Shown: positions 1 through 41,413 of the stretch, in pieces
Layout: the number at the start of each line of letters is the position of its first letter
How positions within the stretch are numbered: position 1 is the stretch's first letter
Virus record (IMG/VR): IMGVR_UViG_2541047940_000004
Coordinates: 1 to 41,413 of that record
Source of the DNA: a virus
Lineage: Duplodnaviria; Heunggongvirae; Uroviricota; Caudoviricetes
Length of the DNA stretch: 41,413 nucleotides
Direction: 5' to 3' (one strand)
Translations under genes and position numbers: made by a program
The notes under the pieces: model-generated
Databases searched by the model: none
What the model was told of the DNA's origin: nothing
The model's input: only the letters and a program-made list of their open reading frames with translations

Positions 1-1158
1 ATGCTCACCGTTAAGCAGATTGAAGCAGCAAAGCCGAAAGAAAAACCATACCGCCTACTCGATGGTAATGGCCTGTACCTTTATGTCCCTGTGTCAGGGA
101 AAAAGGTATGGCAGCTTCGCTACAAGATTGACGGTAAGGAGAAAATCCTGACCGTAGGAAAATATCCGCTAATGACTTTGCAGGAGGCAAGAGATAAAGC
201 ATGGACCGCGAGGAAAGACATCTCGGTTGGCATCGATCCGGTAAAAGCGAAAAAGGCTTCGTCTAACAACAATTCCTTTAGTGCCATTTACAAGGAATGG
301 TACGAGCACAAGAAGCAAGTCTGGTCAGTAGGCTATGCAACTGAACTTGCCAAAATGTTTGATGACGACATTTTACCCATCATCGGCGGTCTTGAGATTC
401 AGGATATTGAGCCGATGCAACTGCTGGAAGTAATCCGCAGATTTGAAGATCGCGGTGCAATGGAGCGAGCCAACAAAGCCCGCAGAAGATGCGGCGAGGT
501 TTTCCGTTACGCTATTGTCACCGGCAGGGCTAAATATAACCCGGCACCTGACCTTGCTGACGCCATGAAGGGGTACCGCAAGAAGAACTTCCCGTTTCTT
601 CCTGCAGACCAGATCCCGGCATTCAATAAAGCACTGGCAACATTTTCAGGAAGTATCGTATCGCTCATTGCCACCAAGGTTTTACGCTACACTGCCCTAA
701 GAACGAAAGAGCTTCGTTCCATGCTATGGAAGAACGTCGATTTTGAAAACAGAATTATCACCATCGACGCCAATGTGATGAAGGGACGCAAAATTCATGT
801 GGTCCCGATGTCAGACCAGGTGGTTGAACTTCTCACTACGCTAAGCTCAATCACCAAACCAGTATCAGAGTTTGTTTTTGCCGGGCGCAACGATAAGAAG
901 AAGTCAATCTGCGAGAACGCGGTACTGCTTGTGATCAAACAAATCGGCTATGAAGGTCTGGAAAGCGGTCACGGATTCAGGCATGAATTCAGCACGATTA
1001 TGAACGAGCACGAATGGCCTGCTGACGCTATTGAAGTGCAACTGGCACATGCCAACGGCGGATCTGTGCGAGGGATTTACAACCATGCTCAGTATCTCGA
1101 TAAGCGCAGAGAAATGATGCAGTGGTGGGCGGACTGGCTTGATGAAAAGGTGGAGTGA
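1..1158 (+). CDS. int: Tyrosine integrase, P4-type (tRNA-site family)
   Basis: 385-aa ORF; N-terminal arm-binding-like region (KPYRLLDGNGLYLYV...WQLRY) and C-terminal catalytic motifs (HGFRHEF ... RGIYNHAQY); sits at prophage end. Confidence 0.85.
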   Translation: MLTVKQIEAAKPKEKPYRLLDGNGLYLYVPVSGKKVWQLRYKIDGKEKILTVGKYPLMTLQEARDKAWTARKDISVGIDPVKAKKASSNNNSFSAIYKEWYEHKKQVWSVGYATELAKMFDDDILPIIGGLEIQDIEPMQLLEVIRRFEDRGAMERANKARRRCGEVFRYAIVTGRAKYNPAPDLADAMKGYRKKNFPFLPADQIPAFNKALATFSGSIVSLIATKVLRYTALRTKELRSMLWKNVDFENRIITIDANVMKGRKIHVVPMSDQVVELLTTLSSITKPVSEFVFAGRNDKKKSICENAVLLVIKQIGYEGLESGHGFRHEFSTIMNEHEWPADAIEVQLAHANGGSVRGIYNHAQYLDKRREMMQWWADWLDEKVE

Positions 1159-1183
1159 TCCACCTTAACCACTATCGGATAGT

Positions 1184-1215
1184 ACAAAGCCTTGCAATCC
1201 AGTGCAAAGCTTTGT
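1184..1215. terminator. Imperfect 13-bp hairpin between convergent int and tailspike genes
   Basis: acaaagccttgca / tgcaaagctttgt arms with 6-nt loop, one mismatch; lies between two convergent stops; no clear T-run. Confidence 0.35.
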
Positions 1216-1294
1216 GTGTTTCAGTTCCCTCACAATCACTATAATGTTCATTACGGTAATCATAAAACTAATGTATAGTTACATATTGTTTTCT

Positions 1295-3469
1295 TCATTT
1301 CACCACCCAACCAGAATTCCAGCGACCTGATTCTTTGATGTAGAGTCTTCCATTTACGATATCTCGATACTCGCTTCCAGGTGTGGCTATTTGTACTCCT
1401 TCAGGATTTCCAGTGCCAGCAATTATACTGTAACTAACGTCTGTGGCTAAATTCCTAACAATGTTAGCAGGAGGGTAAACGTTATCTGCAACAATAATAT
1501 TTGAGCAACTTGCTGTTACATCTACAAAAAACTCATTGCTTATCGAGTTGTGATAACAGTTGTTACTAATCACACCATTTTTAGCAGATGAATCAATACC
1601 TATAACTGCGTCTCCAGCTACAGATTCAAATGAATTTGATGTCACAGTGAATCCGTGGCATTCGCAGTTAATATGGACAGCTCTTCTTCCGTTCATTGCT
1701 GTATTACCTACAATTGATATGTTTCTACTTAACAAAGTTCCTTTGTATTCGCCATCATCCTCAAATATATAGAATATCGCCTTAGCCGTATCAACTTTAT
1801 TGTTGCTTGCAATCACATTAGCAATGTAATTCCCTCTAAGGAATATCCCATTACATGAATCGACTGTGTTTCCAGTGATGGAAACTCCGTCAACCCATCT
1901 CATATCAAGAATGGAGCCATCACAGGACTCAAAATTATTTCCTGATATCCTCCAGTCTCTGTGAAATATTCTACTACCTTCCAATCCGCTCTCAATAAAT
2001 GTTGGTGTAAGGCATGATATCACAGAATTTCCAGTGCAATTTTTAAATGTATTATGATGTATACACACATCTCTTGATGTTTCCCGAAGAGTTGTGCTTA
2101 CTTTCCTCCCGGTAAATATTATTGCTGGATTAGTGAAATTTATAAATGTGTTTGAACCAATGTCAACATTTTCCCACCTAGAAAAGCCACGAATGCCAGA
2201 ATAAGAATTACCATCAAAAGTACAATGGTGGATTTTTATATCAATAACTGGCTGCGCTCCATCTGTTGAACCGTGATTCCCTACGCCAACAGCCCATGAC
2301 GGTAGAGATTCTGACGGTCCAAAATAACAACCAGACACTTTAATGCTAGCGATATTATCATTGCTGGACAATGGTGTTTCAATCTGAATAGCATCTGAAA
2401 AACCTCTGTTACCTGCCCAATCCATAAACCCCATAAAACGGCAGTTTTCAATATTAACATTTCTCACGCGAGACAAGTCTATAGCATGCGCCCCTGAAAC
2501 ATTAAGGAATGTGCAATCCCGAAATATAATCCCATTAGTAAAAACAAATTCAAATATACTGGCTTGGTTTTTGTATATATTGCCATTGTTATTAAAAACA
2601 CCACCAAATACAGATATATTATTACCACATTCGACTTCAGATGTGTATATGCAAGCAAATGTATTTACACCTGTGTCTGAATTATCAAAAGCACGAATAA
2701 TAGTTGCACCTCGTAGATGTAAACTTGTGTTTGAGTATATCATTATTTTTTTTGTTATTTTTATAAGCCATTCACTACGAAAAGTTAAATTCAAACATCC
2801 GTTTATCTTTGCGATATTTAAAGCATTCTGTAAGGCATCGCTATCGTCGCTTACACCATCACCTGTAACCCCAAACCATGACGGTGAAACCTCATTCCCG
2901 TAAACCCTCTTCCACCTTCTACCGTTAAAACCTACAAGAATTGTTCCGTCATTATCTTCTGATGTCGTATCTGTTGGGTCAGCATAGAACACCCCATCAC
3001 CGCCATCGAACAAATTATTTCTTCCATAACAGATTATTTTGTCATTTGTGCCATTATATGAACGTATGTCTGTATAATTACCACCTCCTAAATACGATAC
3101 CCCGTCAATCTGATTTAGTTTCTGCTGAAACATGTCTGGATCATACTTCAGCACATTAGGAAAATAGAATTGCTGCGCTCCATACGCATCATATACAGCC
3201 ATAGAATGGCCTTGCACGGTTACGAATTTGGCAATCTGTCCGTTATATACCGGATATCCAGCAGCGTTAATGATGATTGGTTGCGAAACAGGGATGTGAG
3301 AACCGTCTTCGTTCTCCACATAAACCTGAATCTGGTTTTCAGGATTTACCGGGTCAGTGTCAATTTTACCGATATAAATTTTGCCATTAGCTACGGCTTT
3401 AAAAGAACGCGCCATAGTGAAAAGTTGCGAAGGCATCGATACGATCACATTGGCTGTAATGTCTGTCAT
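1295..3469 (-). CDS. Tailspike protein: P22-type head-binding N-terminal domain plus beta-helix receptor-binding domain
   Basis: 724 aa; N-terminus MTDITANV...[37 protein letters not shown] matches the P22/Sf6-family tailspike head-binding domain from memory; remainder is Asn/Gly/Ser-rich repetitive and AT-rich, consistent with a beta-helix. Confidence 0.9.
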
Positions 3470-3526
3470 TTAATTTTCTCCAGATACAAGGAATCGCCGA
3501 AGCATGGCTACGGTGAATTTTAGGCA

Positions 3527-3550
3527 TAAAAAAACCCAGCCTAAGCTGGG
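3527..3550 (-). terminator. Rho-independent terminator downstream of ant
   Basis: Minus strand reads CCCAGC-ttag-GCTGGG followed by a 7-8 nt T-run, immediately after the ant stop. Confidence 0.55.
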
Positions 3551-3569
3551 TCGTTGCGTTGGTTATCTG

Positions 3570-4538
3570 TCAGTAGTTATGTACTGAAGGAGGTAATTCT
3601 TTATTCTTAAGTCTTATCCATGCGGAAAGATTCGTTGGTCCGTCTGGCTCATTGATATCAACATCTCGTGTGTGGTTGATTAAAACGTCTCTCGCCATTC
3701 CGATAACATACGAGAATTCATGACCGTAGTCGTAGCATCTGCCGGAATAGTTCGATTGAATTTGTTTCAGCGCCGGATACAATTCGCGGAATAATGCCTG
3801 TGAGCGGTTGGCATAATCCCATAACCATACAAGGCTGTTTGCTTCTTTTGCAGAAAGCTCGTTTGCTTTCTTCTCTTGTTTGCCGATTAACTCGCCTTCA
3901 AGCACTACCCTGTGGATGTACTCTACGGCTTGCGGTATCTGAGATGCATCAAGCTCTTCAATACTTTCCACATTGAAACGCTGATGAATCATTGCATAAG
4001 CTTCTGGGTACATTAGATGCTTTTTGCTGACTAGCATATTTACAGCATCACGAAGCGGAGTCCTGTCATCAACAGATGTTTTCTTACGTGCATTTTCTGC
4101 CTTTCCCTTTGTCCAGTAGTCATGCAGTACAGTAAAGCATTCTTCCTGGTACTGAATCAGTTTATCACGGATGTCAGCACGAACTTTCTCAGGGTTGATG
4201 CTGATCAGCCATCCATTTAACTTCTTCAAAGGAAGGCATAGTAGCTTACGAAGCTTCCCATCAGCGGCAACCATGTTCATATGAACACAGTTGAATTTGC
4301 TAATCTGCTTCATGAGTTTTGTTTGCTGCGTTGACCAGCTCATTCCAAGGTTTTCAACGATTGGCTTCATCGCAACATATGCAACTCCGGCAGCCATGGC
4401 GGTGATAATTTGCTGACCGTTGAATGGTACATAAGAGGTGTTCACTGCTTCTAAAATTGCTATACTATTCATGTTGGTTTTTCTCCACGGATTTACTGAC
4501 AACCGAAGCCCTGACTGTTCCCGCAGTTGGGGCTTCAC
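3570..4538 (-). CDS. ant: Antirepressor Ant
   Basis: Position downstream of arc in the immI operon; ORF start at 4538 overlaps the stop of the upstream ORF (ATGA); alternative start at 4472 (MNSIAIL..., preceded by GGAG) gives 300 aa, the size I recall for P22 Ant. Confidence 0.8.
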
Positions 4539-5305: not shown

Positions 5306-6025
5306 ATGAAAAAAAGCAATGGACTCACATTAAAACTTGACGGAACCACCCCAGGCCAGCTGTCAATGGCTAAGTTGGTCAAGTATATGTCTGCTCTCGT
5401 AGATCTATACGGTTCTGCAGATTCTGTTCACTTCGACTGTGTAAGTGAAGGATCGGCTGACTTAAATGCATGGGTCGATAATGATATTTGTTATAACGCT
5501 GTCATAGCAAGGGCCTCTCTCTCAGCCAAAGAGAAATCACCCGCGTATCAAAAAATTGTTAATTTACTGGAACATGATGGTTTTTCAGCGAAACTACTCG
5601 GACGAAACCACTCAACCATTATCGCATTCCCGCGAGTAAAAAAGGAGCCAATCCCTTTACTCATAACAAAAACGTCAGAAGTTCAAGGAAGGCTATACAG
5701 TGTTGGCGGAAAAGACAACTCAATACCTGTGCGTATTGAGGGAGCCAACGGTGAAACATTCAAGTGCGAGGCAACCCCTGATTTGGCGGCAGCTCTTGGG
5801 TCCCATCTATTCAAATATATTAGGGTTAAAGGAGATGGGTGCTGGGAAAAAAAGAACAACAAATGGGAGCTAAAGAAACTAAAAATAACTTCATTTGTAT
5901 TGCTCAAAAAATCATCACTCAAGGATGCTATTAATGCTATCAAGCAAGTTCCTGGAGATCAGTGGTCCGAGGAACGCGATGTTGATTCAATCCTTAGGAC
6001 TCTGAGGAAGATAAATTGCGAGTAA
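5306..6025 (+). CDS. Hypothetical 239-aa protein, upstream partner of PIN-like gene
   Basis: Long ORF immediately after mnt; AT-rich by eye; stop overlaps the start of the next gene; no domain recognised by eye. Confidence 0.7.
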   Translation: MKKSNGLTLKLDGTTPGQLSMAKLVKYMSALVDLYGSADSVHFDCVSEGSADLNAWVDNDICYNAVIARASLSAKEKSPAYQKIVNLLEHDGFSAKLLGRNHSTIIAFPRVKKEPIPLLITKTSEVQGRLYSVGGKDNSIPVRIEGANGETFKCEATPDLAAALGSHLFKYIRVKGDGCWEKKNNKWELKKLKITSFVLLKKSSLKDAINAIKQVPGDQWSEERDVDSILRTLRKINCE

Positions 6026-6564
6026 TTTTAGATACCAATATTCTGGTATACCTACTATCAGATATAGAACACGATTATAGATTATCTGACCCTATACTTG
6101 GTTCTGAGATTCCAGATGCCAAAAGAAGAGCAGAAGCTCTTGTTGATCGAATAGATAACAAGAACGGGACAATCATCGTTCCAACTCCTGTATTGGCGGA
6201 GTTTTTAGTTGGAATCCATAAAGATTACCAACAAGAAAAACTGAATGTTATCAAATCGTTATCGTGCTTCGAGACTGTATCATTTGATGAGTTGGCTGCT
6301 ATTGAATGCGCATCGATACCAACATTAAAAGAATTAAGGAAAATTAGCACAGAAGGTACAGCAAATAAAATTAAGTTTGACAGACAAATAATAGCAATTG
6401 CAAGAGCAATTAATGCTGACGAGGTATGGACTCATGATAAGGGAGTGTTTGAGCGTTGCAAAAGTCTCAATATTCCTGTGTTCACATTATCATCAATAGA
6501 ACCAATTCCGGTTCAAAGTCTCATGGAGTTCTTACACGATTCAGACGATCAGAGATTACACTAA
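6016..6564 (+). CDS. PIN-domain-like nuclease (VapC-like fold), 182 aa
   Basis: TTG start overlapping upstream stop (TTGCGAGTAA); motifs ILDTNIL (D6), PVLAEF (E62), FDRQIIAIARA (D122), WTHD (D141) fit the PIN acidic quartet. Confidence 0.7.
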   Translation: MRVILDTNILVYLLSDIEHDYRLSDPILGSEIPDAKRRAEALVDRIDNKNGTIIVPTPVLAEFLVGIHKDYQQEKLNVIKSLSCFETVSFDELAAIECASIPTLKELRKISTEGTANKIKFDRQIIAIARAINADEVWTHDKGVFERCKSLNIPVFTLSSIEPIPVQSLMEFLHDSDDQRLH

Positions 6565-6897: not shown

Positions 6898-8739
6898 TCA
6901 CTGCTGTGTTGCCTCAGTGGCAAGCAGCGGTCTGATGGCATTTGCAGCGTTACTCAACGCTCTTTCATAGGCTGGCGTTCCAGCTTTAGTGTTTGCCAGA
7001 CGTAAGAGCGCATTCCTTGCTGCTTTGGATTCATACAAGCGCATCATTGCACCGAAACCAGCCTCAAGCCCCATTGATACGCCAAGAGTCGCAGTTGCGC
7101 CAATCGTCCTTATCCTGTTGGCTTGCGATTGCCCCGTCTGAGTTACTACATTTGCGGTGTCTGACCTTGCTGTTTGCTGCAGAACTTCATGAAGAGCATC
7201 AAGTTCTTTCATGTGCTTTCCAGAAAAAATAGTGTTGTAAATTTCACCGCCTGACTGAGATTTCAGCTTATTAACTTCAGTGATGAACTTGGCTGGAGAG
7301 TCACCGGCCTTTTCCGCTATTTTGCTGACGTAAGCTGCACGCATAGCATCTTTCCCTTTATCATCCAGTGCGCTCCAGATTCGTTTCACGTCAGATGGTT
7401 TTCTGCTTAATACAACGGTATTTATAAGTTCAGGACTGGCTTCACTGCTTGCCTTGTTGAGCTTGTTAGCAATGTTTTTATTAAGCACCTTATTATAAAC
7501 GTTTGCATAATCGGAATTTGCTTTAAGGTATTTTGCTGCGTCTGATGCACCGAGGTTTTTAGCAACTGCGTTACGAAGGTCTTTTGACATTGCATTCTCT
7601 ACCATATTGGTAGCTGCTTTTGCCTGGTTGGGGAAGACCATAGCATCTCCCTGAACATTAGATCTAAATGCTGTTCTGTGCTGACGCAAGAGATCAAACG
7701 TAACATCCAAATCAGTTGCAGGGTTTGCTAATTCTTCACGTAGGTTACGCAAGGATGTAAGCAGGCTTTGATTGGCAGACGTCCCAAGCCGTTCCTGTCT
7801 TGCGATCGCTGTATTCAGAGCATTCATGGTATTTGTGGTATCAACTGCGGCATTACCCATTTTATTGGTGACGTCATTGATAACAGCGCCAGCGGCATCC
7901 TTCCGCCCCCTTAACGTGGTGGTCAGAGATTTCACCACATCATCAGGGTTGTACTCACCAAAACGGTCAAAATAATTGCTTACCAGCTTACTACGCGTTG
8001 CATATTGCTCCGCTCGCTTTGAGCCTGTCCCGAGCAAAGCCCCCTCGGCATCCTGAGTAAGGCCGCGAGTGAAAGCATTTTTCGGCGGGATAACATCAGA
8101 TGTCATTGGTGTCACGCCCATCGATTCTGATGTGGCAATTTTCTTCGCCACTTCTGGCGCAATATCACCTTTTATAGCCGTTATTCCACGCCCTATTCCC
8201 TTTGCTGCTGCGGAAAGAACACCCTGAGCGGCAAGGTTAACTCCGGCATTTTTAGCTGCATTTTGTGCGAAATCGCCTTTCTGATTTGCGGCCTCTGCCA
8301 GTGATCCAATAGCCATGCTTCCTGCCGTTCCAACTCCTGGAACTAAATACCCGCCAATTGTTTCTCCAGCTTGCGCATAAGGGTCTGTTGGTCGATCTAC
8401 TGGACGATAGACATCGTCCAAAACCTTGGGGCCACCAAGCCCCTGGCTGATTGCATTAATCAGACTTGCGCCACCCTGCAATACGTCAAATGGTATGTTT
8501 ACCAGACCACGACCAGCCTGCTCTGCAATTTGCCCTGCACTTTGACCATCTGTGAGCCAATCGCCAGCTTGTTGCATCAATGATGGTTCTTCACGTGCTG
8601 GTTCATTATTGGCCTGATTAACTGTTTGTTGCTGAACAGCCTGACCAGCAAAATACTCATCAATGGCGGTGCCAATATCTTCCGTGCTCGTACCATCAGG
8701 GAAGGTAAATGTCTTACCGTTTGCAGTTACTTTCATCAT
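6898..8739 (-). CDS. Ejection (injection) protein, P22 gp16-like
   Basis: 613 aa; last gene of the P22-order virion operon; size and position match gp16; Ala/Gly-rich. Confidence 0.75.
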
Positions 8740-23265: not shown

Positions 23266-23341
23266 TGGTGCTGGTTAACGGACTTGAACCGCTACCCATT
23301 CGCTTACAAGGCGACCGCTCTACCATTGGAGCTAAACCAGC
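23266..23341 (-). tRNA. Phage-encoded tRNA-like gene, anticodon UGU (Thr)
   Basis: Hand-folded cloverleaf: 7-bp acceptor GCTGGTT/AACCAGC, D-stem GCTC/GAGC, anticodon loop CUUGUAA (U33, A37), T-arm AGCGG-TTCAAGT-CCGTT, discriminator A plus CCA; one G-A mismatch at the base of the anticodon stem. Confidence 0.6.
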
Positions 23342-23346
23342 ATATT

Positions 23347-23421
23347 TGGCGGGACAGCGTGGACTCGAACCACGATAAGAAGGTTAACAGCCTTCCGTAA
23401 TGACCTTTATACGACTGACCC
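23347..23421 (-). tRNA. Phage-encoded tRNA-like gene, anticodon GUU (Asn)
   Basis: Hand-folded: acceptor GGGTCAG/CTGTCCC (one U-U mismatch), anticodon arm GAAGG-CUGUUAA-CCTTC, T-arm CGTGG-TTCGAGT-CCACG, CCA end; D-stem imperfect. Confidence 0.5.
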
Positions 23422-31734: not shown

Positions 31735-32040
31735 ATGGTAACCATTGTCTGGAAAGAATCCAAAGGTACGGCAAAAAGCCGCTACAAAGCTCGCAGAGCA
31801 GAACTTATTGCCGAGCGACGCAGTAATGAAGCACTGGCGCGAAAAATTGCGCTAAAGCTCTCTGGTTGCGTCAGAGCAGACAAAGCAGCTTCACTAGGAA
31901 GCCTTTGCTGCAAAAAGAAAGAAGAAGTCGTTCGAAAAAATAGAAGTATTTATTACAAGGATTCAAACCCATTAGGAAACAAAATACATGCAGTCCAAAA
32001 AATAAAATTGTACAGTAAACTGCCGTACGGTGCTTATTGA
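31735..32040 (+). CDS. N-like antiterminator
   Basis: First gene of the leftward early operon; arginine-rich motif KSRYKARRAELIAERRSNEALARK; start at internal Met MVTIVW of the track ORF. Confidence 0.65.
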   Translation: MVTIVWKESKGTAKSRYKARRAELIAERRSNEALARKIALKLSGCVRADKAASLGSLCCKKKEEVVRKNRSIYYKDSNPLGNKIHAVQKIKLYSKLPYGAY

Positions 32041-32042
32041 GT

Positions 32043-32381
32043 ATGCTTATGGTGAAAAAGACTATTTATGTTAATCCTGACCGCGGACAAAACAGAAAAG
32101 TATCTGATAGAGGTCTTACATCTCGGGACAGGAGGAGAATAGCGAGATGGGAAAAGAGGATAGCATATGCATTAAAAAACGGTGTAACAACTGGATTTAA
32201 TGCTATAGATGACGGTCCTGAATATAAGATTAATGAAGCCCCAATGGACAAAGTTGACAAAGCATTAGCAACACCATTTCCTCGCGATGTCGAAAAAATT
32301 GAAGATGAAAAATATGAGGATGTAATGCACAGAGTTGTTAATCACGCTCACCAACGAAATCCAAATAAAAAATGGTCATAG
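32043..32381 (+). CDS. Hypothetical basic protein (moron at the N 3' end)
   Basis: ORF beginning at or just after the N stop; AT-rich; followed by its own terminator. Confidence 0.5.
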   Translation: MLMVKKTIYVNPDRGQNRKVSDRGLTSRDRRRIARWEKRIAYALKNGVTTGFNAIDDGPEYKINEAPMDKVDKALATPFPRDVEKIEDEKYEDVMHRVVNHAHQRNPNKKWS

Positions 32382-38314: not shown

Positions 38315-39030
38315 GCGAAATTAATTACCAGGCACTGCGTGAAAAGGCAGAGAAAGCAACGTGTGGTGTGTGGTCGCTAGAATATGGAGAGGGCCGATTT
38401 GATGGTGATGATGCACTAATTCATCGCGAGGCTGCTGGATATATTCCCATTTGCAGAATTGAAGGAGCGCATCCAGAAAGCGGTTTCGATGAAGATTTCC
38501 AAATGGAACAGCAGGCCAATGCTGAATTCATCGCCGCAGCCAATCCGGCTACCGTCTTGGCGCTGCTGGGCGAGCTGGAAACAGCAAAAAAGCGCATAGC
38601 AGAACTGGAAGCCGAACCTGTAAGCCAAGCTTACAACTTGCCAGAATTAATCGAAGGCATGGAAGTTTCCATTGATGTAAGTACTTGTGATGCTGATTTA
38701 GGTAATCGCTATTTCGGCACCGTCACCGAGGCGTTAGAACTTGATACTGCCAAGAATGGTTACATCCTCCTGGTTCAGGACGCAGAGCCAAACTTCGATG
38801 TAAATGGCAACTCTCCGGTAACTCCGGATGGTTGGATAAGCTGTAGTGATCGAATGCCGGATACCAAAACAGCCGTTCTTGTTGCCGTGGAGTTTGACAG
38901 GAAAGGTGACTGGCGAATGAAATGGGCGACTTACATCCCGGGTCATCCTGACGCTAATGATGGGTGGATAATTCCTGGTGCGTCGTGGAAACCGTCACAC
39001 TGGATGCCGCTACCAGAGCCTCCACTTTGA
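38311..39030 (+). CDS. Ead/Ea22-like protein with C-terminal DUF551-like domain
   Basis: GTG start 6 nt after AAAGGAGG; C-terminus ...WISCSDRMPD...SHWMPLPEPP typical of DUF551 as recalled. Confidence 0.6.
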   Translation: MSEINYQALREKAEKATCGVWSLEYGEGRFDGDDALIHREAAGYIPICRIEGAHPESGFDEDFQMEQQANAEFIAAANPATVLALLGELETAKKRIAELEAEPVSQAYNLPELIEGMEVSIDVSTCDADLGNRYFGTVTEALELDTAKNGYILLVQDAEPNFDVNGNSPVTPDGWISCSDRMPDTKTAVLVAVEFDRKGDWRMKWATYIPGHPDANDGWIIPGASWKPSHWMPLPEPPL

Positions 39031-39126
39031 AAGCGAAGCTTATACATATCTTTTACATCAGCAATCTATTGTTAATCTCCAATCAATGTTACGTTGTCAT
39101 CTCACTCATGCTTTGGAGGTAGTGAT

Positions 39127-39306
39127 ATGTCTTGTCCAAAATGCGGTTCTGGAAATATTGCAAAAGAAAAAACAATGCGTGGATGGTCTGATGATTATGT
39201 GTGCTGCGATTGCGGATACAACTACTCTAAAGACGCATTTGGAGAGCGTGGTAAAAACGAGTTTGTCAAAATTAATAAAGAACGCGAAGGCAACGAAAAA
39301 AGCTAA
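39127..39306 (+). CDS. Small zinc-ribbon protein (59 aa)
   Basis: GGAGG 7 nt upstream; MSCPKCGSGN...CCDCGYNY with two CxxC pairs. Confidence 0.5.
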   Translation: MSCPKCGSGNIAKEKTMRGWSDDYVCCDCGYNYSKDAFGERGKNEFVKINKEREGNEKS

Positions 39307-39371
39307 TTTATTTATTCATATATGAAAACAATGTAACCAATATTCGAATTGAAGAACTGAAAGAACACCAA

Positions 39372-39392
39372 GCCGCCTGATGGCGGTTTTTT
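39372..39392 (+). terminator. Rho-independent terminator
   Basis: CCGCC-tgat-GGCGG followed by TTTTTT. Confidence 0.55.
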
Positions 39393-39437
39393 ATTGCCTG
39401 ATTTGCAGGTTCGATTCCCTATTCGGAGATAGCACTC

Positions 39438-39638
39438 ATGCAACACGAACTACAACCTGATTCACTGGTTGATTTGAAATTCATCATGGCCGATACTGGC
39501 TTCGGTAAAACCTTCATCTACGACCGGATTAAGTCCGGCGACCTGCCAAAAGCCAAAGTTATCCACGGGCGAGCAAGATGGTTATATCGTGACCATTGTG
39601 AATTCAAAAATAAGCTCTTAAGCCGCGCCAATGGGTAA
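39438..39638 (+). CDS. AlpA-family excisionase / transcriptional regulator (Xis-like)
   Basis: 66 aa; small HTH protein directly beside the att core at the prophage end. Confidence 0.65.
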   Translation: MQHELQPDSLVDLKFIMADTGFGKTFIYDRIKSGDLPKAKVIHGRARWLYRDHCEFKNKLLSRANG

Positions 39639-39711
39639 AATAGCGGGTAAAATATTTTTCACATCTAAAAAACACCATTCCAATCAATCCCCTGCCGCGT
39701 CAAGTAGATGT

Positions 39712-39726
39712 CTGCAGGGGACACCA
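39712..39726 (+). repeat. attR core: 15-nt copy of the argW tRNA 3' end (CTGCAGGGGACACCA)
   Basis: Matches the 3' terminus of E. coli argW as recalled; upstream bases do not continue the tRNA, so this is a partial copy left by integration. Confidence 0.7.
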
Positions 39727-40165
39727 GATACCCTTCAAACGATATCTACCTTCACCCCGTAAAAGATAAGTTTGGCAGCACATTTGCCCTATCTACTCAT
39801 TTTTCCTGCAACAGGTTGAAATCTCAACACGGTCAGAAAACGCTGATGACTAAACAGCCCTGGGCTGGGCGATGTAACCATCACACACAATCCTGATCGC
39901 GAAATATGGCGTGACTTGATACTTCACTCCACAATGCTTTCCTTGATGAATTCGCAGGCCCGTGATACACGGGACAGGTCGCTGAATTACGACAATGCCC
40001 TGGAAATCAGCGAGCCGTGTATCCGGAGTACATTTGAGCGACTGTACCAGAACATGAATGAGGCGTTTGGATTAGGCGATTATTAGCAGGGCTAAGCATT
40101 TTGGTATTATTATTTTCCGGTTGAGGGATATAGAGCTATCGACAACAACCGGAAAAAGTTTACGT

Positions 40166-41413
40166 TTATATTGCTGAAGGTACTGGCGTTTCCATCACTA
40201 TTTGCTCACGTTTTTTACTCAGGAAGAAAATGCCAAATAGCAACATCAGGCAGACAATACCCGAAATTGCGAAAAAAACCGTCTGGTAGCCTGCGTGGTC
40301 AAAGAGTATCCCAGTCGGCGTTGAAAGCAGCACAATCCCCAACGAACTGGCAATTTGAAAACCAATCAGAAAGATCGTCGACGACAGGCGCTTATCAAAA
40401 TTTGCCACGCTGTATTTGAAGACGGATATGACACAAAGTGGAACCTCAATGGCATGTAACAGCTTCACTAATGAAATAATCCAGGGGTTAACGAATAGCG
40501 CGCAGGAAAGGATACGCAACGCCATAATCACAACACCGATAAGTAATGCATTTTTTGGCCCTACCCGATTCACAAAGAAAGGAATAATCGCCATGCACAG
40601 CGCTTCGAGTACCACCTGGAATGAGTTGAGATAACCATACAGGCGCGTTCCTACATCGTGGGATTCGAATAAACCTGCATAAAAGACAGGAAAGAGTTGT
40701 TGATCAAAAATGTTATAGAAAGACCACGTCCCCACAATAAATATGACGAAAACCCAGAAGTTTCGATCCTTGAAAACTGCGATAAAATCCTCTTTTTTTA
40801 CCCCTCCCACATCCGCCGCTACGCACTGGTGTTCCTGCTCTTTAAAACGCATGTTGATCATCATAAATACAGCGCCAAATAGAGAGACCAACCAGAAGTT
40901 GATATGGGGACTGATACTAAAAAATATGCCAGCAAAGAATGCGCCAATAGCATAGCCAAAAGATCCCCAGGCGCGCGCTGTTCCATATTCGAAATGAAAA
41001 TTTCGCGCCATTTTTTCGGTGAAGCTGTCAAGCAAACCGCATCCCGCCAGATACCCCAGACCAAAAAAGAGCGCCCCCAGAATTAAACCTACAGAAAAAT
41101 TGCTTTGCAGTAACGGTTCATAAACGTAAATCATAAACGGTCCGGTCAAGACCAAGATGAAACTCATACACCAGATGAGCGGTTTCTTCAGACCGAGTTT
41201 ATCCTGAACGATGCCGTAGAACATCATAAATAGAATGCTGGTAAACTGGTTGACCGAATAAAGTGTACCTAATTCCGTCCCTGTCAACCCTAGATGTCCT
41301 TTCAGCCAAATAGCGTATAATGACCACCACAGCGACCAGGAAATAAAAAAGAGAAATGAGTAACTGGATGCAAAACGATAGTACGCATTTCTGAATGGAA
41401 TATTCAGTGCCAT
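40166..41413 (-). CDS. cscB: LacY-family oligosaccharide:H+ symporter, CscB-like sucrose permease (host gene)
   Basis: 415 aa with about 12 hydrophobic segments; matches E. coli CscB as recalled (MALNIPFRNAYYRFASSYSFLFF...); the csc locus is known to sit at argW. Confidence 0.8.
   Translation of the reverse strand: MALNIPFRNAYYRFASSYSFLFFISWSLWWSLYAIWLKGHLGLTGTELGTLYSVNQFTSILFMMFYGIVQDKLGLKKPLIWCMSFILVLTGPFMIYVYEPLLQSNFSVGLILGALFFGLGYLAGCGLLDSFTEKMARNFHFEYGTARAWGSFGYAIGAFFAGIFFSISPHINFWLVSLFGAVFMMINMRFKEQEHQCVAADVGGVKKEDFIAVFKDRNFWVFVIFIVGTWSFYNIFDQQLFPVFYAGLFESHDVGTRLYGYLNSFQVVLEALCMAIIPFFVNRVGPKNALLIGVVIMALRILSCALFVNPWIISLVKLLHAIEVPLCVISVFKYSVANFDKRLSSTIFLIGFQIASSLGIVLLSTPTGILFDHAGYQTVFFAISGIVCLMLLFGIFFLSKKREQIVMETPVPSAI

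Follow-up and report, generated by a model that had tools for sequence, protein, structure and literature searches.

Modular architecture, cassette exchange and probable K2 capsule target of a tailspike from a CUS-3-like Escherichia coli prophage

The DNA analyzed here, called the window throughout, is the 41,413-nucleotide virus record IMGVR_UViG_2541047940_000004 at its full length. It is a complete prophage in the KplE1/CUS-3 layout, in which the integrase gene stands beside a convergent tailspike gene, and it is this tailspike that is the subject of the present analysis. The open reading frame (ORF) list contains the gene as one complete frame, and it matches PHROG 2234 ("tail spike protein") with E=2.6e-173. 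The near-identical genes (98.7-98.8%) of E. coli strains E3 and MS15236 carry the RefSeq annotation "phage tailspike protein". The product has three features of a P22-like (Lederbergvirus) tailspike: a PF09008 head-binding domain, a place at the end of the P22-type virion block beside immI, and a parallel beta-helix. Tailspikes of this kind are homotrimers, present in six copies per virion, with receptor-destroying activity. An earlier note on the same DNA had described a mosaic of two parts, a conserved P22-type head-binding N-terminus and a divergent AT-rich receptor-binding domain. This is the tailspike of a CUS-3/HK620-like P22-family prophage, built as a mosaic of four modules and swapped as a cassette, and we propose that it probably targets the K2 capsule as a predicted depolymerase. 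The gene and its modules, with positions in the window and in amino acids (aa), are as follows.

1295..3469, minus strand: tailspike gene, ATG start, 724 codons plus stop
3116..3469, minus strand, aa 1-118: module 1, P22/Sf6-type head-binding (tail-attachment) domain and short helix, from PF09008, the Sf6 gp14 alignment and an AlphaFold (AF2) model
2885..3115, minus strand, aa 119-195: module 2, small beta domain, PF27114 Phage_tail_beta, the name being precomputed for the 98% identical P0001
1454..2884, minus strand, aa 196 to about 672: module 3, right-handed parallel beta-helix, PfbA-like, receptor-binding and putative catalytic part
1298..1453, minus strand, aa 673-724: module 4, C-terminal beta strands and short tail, conserved with the relatives of the module, predicted local distance difference test (pLDDT) score 91-94

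Module borders were placed using sliding identity to relatives, sequence searches and two AF2 models, in which monomers were predicted; the pLDDT of the tailspike model is 83. For module 1 the assignment is unequivocal. Pfam Head_binding PF09008 covers aa 1-112 with E=1.1e-65 (219 bits; cut-off, 24), and Sf6 gp14 (7sg7) aligns to aa 1-118 with E=3.7e-65 and, as counted on the alignment, about 93% identity. Identity to many P22-type tailspikes is 91-100% in this module, and in the AF2 model aa 8-103 form a beta-domain and aa 111-118 a helix. Among solved structures the P22 tailspike chains, full-length 2xc1 and 8tvr included, align to aa 1-117 only, and no homology to the P22 gp9-type endorhamnosidase was found in the C-terminal 550 or so residues. 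Both the head-binding assignment and the unlikeness of the remainder to P22, which the earlier note had put forward, are thereby confirmed.

Module 2 has homologues in the tailspike of Acinetobacter phage AM24 (5w5p, residues 42-132, E=7.7e-18), in CBA120 TSP2 and in a K64-1 depolymerase. PF27114 is absent from the Pfam set that was scanned, and the assignment was taken from P0001. The module has an AF2 pLDDT of 86-96, and many P22-type tailspikes show 40-60% identity to it in the corresponding region, so that the part common to these proteins reaches approximately aa 195-220 at this lower identity. Structure prediction, which the earlier note had suggested, gave a right-handed parallel beta-helix for the receptor-binding part, and this helix carries a conserved asparagine ladder. 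Module 4 contains a motif, G.P.G...A..GS.Y......LYIK.SG....GW..K, which is common only to the module's own relatives P0002-P0005 and P0009; a role in trimer stability is assumed. A Pfam search of the C-terminal part gave a sub-threshold Beta_helix match only, and an NCBIfam search of the tailspike assigned no family. The fusion described earlier is therefore borne out, but the number of modules is four and not two.

Evidence that the receptor-binding part has been exchanged horizontally came from several independent comparisons. A search of 5,426 complete E. coli genomes gave 1,137 records whose match is limited to nucleotides (nt) 1-354 or 1-348 of the gene, with 90-95% identity, and just two that match it as a whole (98.7-98.8%). 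These two full-length carriers are E3, isolated from poultry in China, and MS15236, from cerebrospinal fluid in Sweden. Their prophages occupy different chromosomal sites, near dacD and near torT, respectively, and the window copy adjoins intS. When the tailspike genes of the window, E3 and MS15236 were compared, 18 of 28 and 19 of 27 nucleotide differences were located inside nt 1-354 (binomial P=1.6e-8 and 6e-10). Divergence between the alleles is 5.1-5.4% in nt 1-354, 0% in nt 355-651 and 0.5-0.7% in the remainder. Since the differences are clustered in nt 1-354, the same receptor-binding part must have been combined with different head-binding alleles. The recombination joint is at the domain border, at about codon 118.

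The gene also moves as a whole. Comparison of the window with the E3 and MS15236 prophages by blastn delimited a shared segment, as follows.

1075..3535, maximal extent: cassette of about 2.44 kb, about 98% identical to the E3 and MS15236 prophages; MS15236 shares 1075-3514 and E3 shares 1098-3535

This segment begins 45-65 nt ahead of the ATG and ends 200-220 nt beyond the stop codon, and it takes in the final 61-84 nt of the window integrase gene, which in MS15236 are a truncated pseudogene beside torT. In both strains the tailspike gene is followed by this 61-84 nt remnant of an IntS-like int 3′ end and then by unrelated host DNA (MS15236, L001 8312-8395; E3, L002 ~8176-8372); the remnant breakpoints of the two strains differ by 23 nt. 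An attachment site in the int 3′ end was considered as the source of the remnants and rejected, as the breakpoints are 23 nt apart and the host sites are not the same. It seems that the cassette with the tailspike gene was brought into prophages whose integration modules are different. Overall, the whole gene moves between prophages as a cassette of about 2.4 kb.

Relatives of the receptor-binding part on its own were sought exhaustively among 1.84 billion representatives, and 882 were found for aa 195-724. Clusters with more than 50% identity to this part are only its own and that of P0003. The closest module relatives, P0002-P0004 (50-55% identity), carry other N-terminal anchors. In P0003 and P0004 the anchor is Tail_spike_N PF18668, and the genes follow those for the tape measure and the tail, within siphovirus tail modules akin to those of Kagunavirus-like and Sf11-like phages; the contigs share 88-93% identity with relatives of phiEc3 and vB_Eco_K-01 among the E. 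coli siphoviruses, and with Shigella phage Sf11. In a collection of 50,697 phage records none covers 80% of the tailspike protein, and the best match to aa 212-724 is to Vectrevirus tailspikes, at 27-28% identity. The part-only matches, the clustering of allele differences and the other anchors on the module's relatives together support the proposal of the earlier note, in which a receptor-binding module that has been swapped horizontally is joined to a conserved head-binding N-terminus.

Base composition is in agreement with that note as well, although the picture is less sharp than a simple two-part fusion would suggest. With a guanine plus cytosine content (GC) of 46.5% for the whole window, the values for the gene, including GC at third codon positions (GC3), were the following.

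aa 1-118, head-binding part: GC 42.4%, GC3 42.4%
aa 119-217: GC 41.4%, GC3 33.3%
aa 218-724: GC 36.8%, GC3 27.6%
Other 42 long ORFs in the window: GC3 45.5 +/- 6.7% (mean +/- standard deviation)

All the lowest-GC 1,521-nt stretches of the window fall within the tailspike gene, and the composition of the receptor-binding part differs from that of the portal gene (P=5e-18). The step at the head-binding border is modest, being significant at third positions (Fisher P=0.004) but not over all sites (P=0.09). The head-binding part itself is already under the window mean, and the sharpest trough (30%) lies at aa 220-320, away from the domain border. A GC profile across the gene thus has the low-GC C-terminal part that was expected, with a gradual change. 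AT-richness as an intrinsic trait of the module family was ruled out, because the siphovirus homologues of the receptor-binding module have 49% GC; it is therefore specific to this lineage. Together with the 27-28% identity of the best sequenced phage match, this shift separates the protein from a tailspike of uniform composition with a near-identical characterised counterpart in its own lineage, which was the finding that the earlier note had named as contrary to its reading.

That tailspikes evolve by combining an anchor with swappable modules is well established (PMC10408124). For P22-like phages, tailspike mosaicism is textbook knowledge, and the earlier observation and its interpretation, while right, are ordinary by themselves. 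What is added here is the division into four modules, the placement in a PfbA-like family that is enzymatically uncharacterised, and a consistent but indirect link to the K2 capsule.

The family was recognized from both sequence and fold. A profile of the receptor-binding module matches the pneumococcal surface protein PfbA with E=1.3e-64 at about 21% identity, and PfbA is also the top Foldseek match; the solved tailspikes of HK620 and CBA120 give generic beta-helix matches only. By its similarity to the PfbA core domain the module belongs to the PfbA-like family. PfbA itself is a bacterial protein anchored to the cell wall and has neither the N-terminal modules of the phage protein nor its C-terminal tail. 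On the phage side, the family also includes annotated tail spikes from SPO1-like, Bacillus pumilus, Staphylococcus and Streptomyces phages. An alignment of 184 family members shows no variation at H328, Q362 or H399; position 331 is D or E in 184/184, and position 359 is E or D in 179/184. The predicted centre, whose role is deduced from conservation and the PfbA alignment, is encoded as follows.

2273..2488, minus strand: codons of the predicted active or binding centre
2486-2488, minus strand: H328, corresponding to PfbA H293
2477-2479, minus strand: D331, corresponding to PfbA Q296
2393-2395, minus strand: D359, corresponding to PfbA E328
2384-2386, minus strand: Q362, corresponding to PfbA Q331
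2378-2380, minus strand: E364, corresponding to PfbA E333
2273-2275, minus strand: H399, corresponding to PfbA H377

Likeness of these residues to the stacked NTD, DD, GHG and RIK motifs of family 28 polygalacturonases is taken to be an analogy and nothing further. The correspondence was counted along the profile alignment and the numbering was compared with the published one (PMC3718772). Of the residues in the proposed centre of PfbA, H328, Q362, E364 and H399 are kept, and position 331 is Asp here and Gln296 in PfbA, so that the positions are shared but the chemistry differs.

This comparison bears directly on whether the module cuts or only binds. PfbA is the closest solved relative, and it has no lyase activity detectable on a panel of polysaccharides and no obvious catalytic machinery (PMC3718772). 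The open-access literature that was searched describes neither an enzymatic activity for any PfbA-like family member nor a link between PfbA and tailspikes, although absence there is not proof. These data could be explained if the beta-helix bound its glycan without catalysis, as in PfbA, and served as a phage adhesin. We consider this unlikely. The acidic residue at 331, Gln in PfbA, is always kept in the 184 sequences and is accompanied by invariant H328, Q362 and H399, a pattern more typical of catalysis; a view of PfbA as a non-catalytic relative of enzymes fits this substitution. As far as is known, the characterised capsule-targeting tailspikes of podoviruses are enzymes. There is also a phage with a distant relative of the module, the Vectrevirus vKMB47, which was propagated on the K2 strain CFT073, forms halos, and has a K5-lyase-like spike together with a second spike (PMC11162368). 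The second spike is a 27% relative of our receptor-binding module, but the other spike could cause the halos. From its sequence the tailspike is therefore best described as a putative depolymerase, and probably one acting on a capsule, for the reasons that follow.

Prophage tailspike type usually tracks the O-type of the host (PMC10408124), and O-antigen is the target of most characterised Lederbergvirus tailspikes. The O-antigen clusters of the two lysogens differ: that of E3 is of the O18 family, a cluster type found in 69/5,426 genomes, and that of MS15236 is O6, interrupted by the insertion sequence IS1. Host O-serogroup as a guide to the receptor was consequently abandoned, as it gave no single answer, and because the lysogens have no O-type in common their capsule loci were compared. 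E3 and MS15236 share the serotype-specific region 2 of a group 2 capsule locus, with 99.9% nucleotide identity and with identical accessions for several proteins. We identify it as the K2 locus, since it shares 98.4% identity with that of CFT073 and with records named O2:K2:H1 and O6:K2:H1, and it encodes a protein of the CDP-glycerol glycerophosphotransferase family. The K2 polysaccharide is a galactosyl-glycerol-phosphate, teichoic-acid-like polymer. Acetylation of its galactose has been noted (PMC13171606).

The K2 locus is present in 141/5,426 genomes (2.6%) and the sub-allele of E3 and MS15236 in 13. The chance that two of two lysogens would be K2 is P=6.7e-4, or 5e-6 for the 13-genome sub-allele. 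The K2 locus (query L011 37883-45514) occurs as two variants 1.6% apart, a major one in 128 genomes, which include CFT073, ATCC 25922 and sequence type 131 (ST131) strains, and a minor one in 13, which include E3, MS15236, the canine strain 317, F11 and several poultry and dog isolates. The same region has a GC of 30.9% and is AT-rich, like both K2-associated P22-type receptor-binding modules, in which GC3 is 0.276 (window 1298-2818) and 0.277 (P0005 type, L013 3355-5079).

The second of these modules, P0005, belongs to the next full-length relative of the tailspike. It is 37% identical over its full length, has the same head-binding domain of P22 type and the same beta-helix family, and is equally AT-rich, but it lacks the Phage_tail_beta domain. 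Its receptor-binding DNA was found in 24 of the E. coli genomes. Among the 94 of 141 K2 genomes that were listed, 17 are P0005 carriers, where 16 would be expected if all 24 were K2 and 0.4 by chance. One further carrier was confirmed directly as K2, bringing the number to at least 18/24. The P0005 carriers are mainly O25b:H4 ST131 genomes; the canine strain, E3 and MS15236 are separate lineages with O-types other than O25b. The second tailspikes of Vectrevirus vKMB47 and 101101UKE1 are members of the same beta-helix family at 27% identity. P0005 and the Vectrevirus spike are linked to K2 hosts but are too divergent for identical specificity to be assumed.

These associations indicate that the target is probably the E. 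coli K2 group 2 capsule and not the O-antigen. The specificity, which the earlier note had held could not be called from sequence by eye, has thus been narrowed by recourse to host genomes. K2 is not among the E. coli K types with known phage depolymerases in the relevant passage of a 2025 review (PMC12488582). No K2-specific coliphage enzyme was found in the open-access literature, where absence is not proof.

A conventional endoglycosidase like those of P22, Sf6 and HK620, specific for the O-antigen of one E. coli serogroup such as an O18 subtype, is the alternative suggested by the habits of the genus. The lysogen E3 is indeed O18, and beside the tailspike there is no gene for modification of O-antigen or capsule. 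Against this, the O-antigen clusters of the two lysogens, O18 and O6, are unrelated, the sister type P0005 is mainly in O25b:H4 ST131, and the O18-specific module of HK620 gives no more than a generic beta-helix fold match. Tailspike types spread over several O-groups have, moreover, been taken as probable non-O-antigen binders (PMC10408124). In our judgement an O-antigen target is distinctly improbable. Very improbable indeed is another shared glycan (such as colanic acid, enterobacterial common antigen or lipopolysaccharide core) with the K2 link as a lineage by-product of extraintestinal pathogenic clones: colanic acid clusters are intact in both lysogens, there is a match with E=1.2e-111 to PHROG 8280 ("tail spike protein with colanic acid degradation activity") and P0005 carriers are strongly clonal, but that PHROG is matched over 432/632 profile positions only, the colanic-acid-annotated tailspike of SEN22 matches by tblastn at aa 1-190 only (60%), a ubiquitous receptor would not predict confinement to the 2.6% of genomes that are K2 across O18, O6 and O25b, and the link holds for isolates from poultry, dogs and humans and for prophages at three sites.

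Several points weigh against a K2-specific enzyme and should be set beside the associations. The P0005 carriers are largely clonal, consisting of ST131 and one wastewater clone, so that their nominal P=8e-26 overstates independence; the independent lineages behind the K2 association number about four or five, and K2 typing of the carriers covers 18/24 genomes. The near-identical tailspike is present in two complete genomes only, and its K2 link is drawn from those two hosts. The chemistry of the K2 repeat unit rests on general knowledge, the CDP-glycerol glycerophosphotransferase gene of the locus and one report (PMC13171606), and the closest solved structure, PfbA, is without demonstrated enzymatic activity. 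Finally, because of the insertion sequences in MS15236, its present surface structures may differ from those at infection. The prophage of this strain carries IS100 in the immI region (L001 2683-4484), and the IS1 in its O6 cluster lies within a glycosyltransferase gene (L009 32941-33638); the strain may be rough and its prophage defective.

A close known parallel is CUS-3, a Lederbergvirus prophage of E. coli K1. As in the window, its integrase is beside a convergent tailspike gene with an antirepressor upstream; its head-binding domain is 92.7% identical over aa 1-123 and its virion genes are 95% identical. Its endosialidase tailspike provides a precedent for a P22-type tailspike specific for capsule and not for O-antigen, and the window tailspike is probably another of this kind. 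The receptor-binding parts, however, are unrelated: CUS-3 matches aa 1-123 only, and its target is K1, compared with the K2 proposed here. A Pfam search of the tailspike found no endosialidase domain, the End_N_terminal PF12218 score being sub-threshold at E=0.046, with 13.9 bits against a cut-off of 26.3 and over 23 residues. With P22 gp9, Sf6 gp14 and HK620 gp9 the protein shares the head-binding domain, the beta-helix architecture and mosaic exchange at the domain border.

By comparison with P22, Sf6, HK620 and CUS-3, the tailspike would form trimers whose N-terminal domains dock on the tail hub and whose beta-helices bind surface polysaccharide and thereby set host range. If the genome associations are a true guide, the polysaccharide bound would be the K2 capsule. 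It may be cut in a groove centred on H328, D331, D359, Q362, E364 and H399, a location suggested by conservation. The bond cleaved could be glycosidic or phosphodiester, the two invariant histidines keeping the latter option in play. In that case the relation of the tailspike to K2 would match that of the CUS-3 endosialidase to K1.

A wider and quite tentative possibility, to which we give a low probability, concerns the family as a whole. PfbA-like proteins might be enzymes of a class not yet recognised, with teichoic-acid-like glycosyl-alditol-phosphate polymers as substrates and a catalytic centre of the form H-x2-[DE] ... [ED]-x2-Q ... H. The tailspike studied here, the sister type of ST131 and the second spike of the Vectreviruses would act on the K2 capsule, and the relatives from SPO1-like, Bacillus pumilus, Staphylococcus and Streptomyces phages on wall teichoic acids. 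Pneumococcal PfbA would have degenerated, with a change of Asp to Gln, into a member that only binds.

The surroundings of the gene conform to the layout of the prophage, which belongs to argW-integrated prophages; the window does not extend to argW. Its virion genes share 95-96% identity with those of CUS-3, vB_EcoP-720R6, phiv205-1 and Kapi1. The features that bear on the tailspike locus and on the ends of the prophage are listed below.

1-1158, plus strand: IntS-like integrase gene, left end
1159..1294: spacer of 136 nt between the convergent int and tailspike genes, with an inverted repeat, sequence AAAGCTTTGCACTGGATTGCAAGGCTTT
3470..3569, minus strand: upstream boundary sequence, about 96% identical to the 101-nt "bsq1 boundary sequence" of CUS-3
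3570-4538: P22-type antirepressor gene, upstream of the tailspike gene, identified by its P22 antirepressor domain
40166-41413, minus strand: LacY-family sugar transporter, last ORF, a host gene and not phage cargo

The boundary sequence holds a terminator-like hairpin of the antirepressor gene (3533-3552) and a GGAG located 9 nt before the tailspike ATG. We infer that it is the 5′ homology anchor for cassette exchange. The 136-nt spacer contains no gene modifying capsule or O-antigen, in contrast to CUS-3, which has neuO there; K-12 CPS-53 has gtr genes at this position. At the right end, a 2.5-kb stretch (38900-41413) matches E. coli regions annotated as torI, Eag and ead genes and an oligosaccharide transporter of the major facilitator superfamily. 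A circular phage genome, which would also place int beside the tailspike gene, was rejected on account of torI and the host sugar-transporter gene at this end.

Three further observations were made elsewhere in the window. Between the immI region and the genes for DNA transfer there are two low-GC ORFs that overlap (5306-6564, plus strand), encoding a 239-aa protein without a Pfam match and a 182-aa PIN-domain protein (E=4e-10) whose GC3 of 0.29 is the second lowest in the window; the pair has the look of accessory cargo, perhaps of the toxin-antitoxin or defence kind. The lowest GC3, 0.278, is that of a 114-aa ORF in the early-left region (32037-32381, plus strand). Adjacent genes for tRNA-Thr(tgt) and tRNA-Asn(gtt) (23266-23421, minus strand) are situated inside the prophage upstream of the lysis genes.

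The value of these results beyond textbook mosaicism lies in the probable target of the tailspike. K2 is common among the capsules of extraintestinal pathogenic E. coli and was met here in CFT073, ATCC 25922 and several O25b:H4 ST131 genomes. If the assignment is true, a K2-specific tailspike would be useful as a reagent for capsule typing, as a capsule-stripping enzyme and as a swap-in module for engineering phage host range. Pneumococcal PfbA is a virulence-associated adhesin whose activity is biochemically uncharacterised, and the tailspike would, on the same condition, provide the first functional handle on the PfbA-like beta-helix family.

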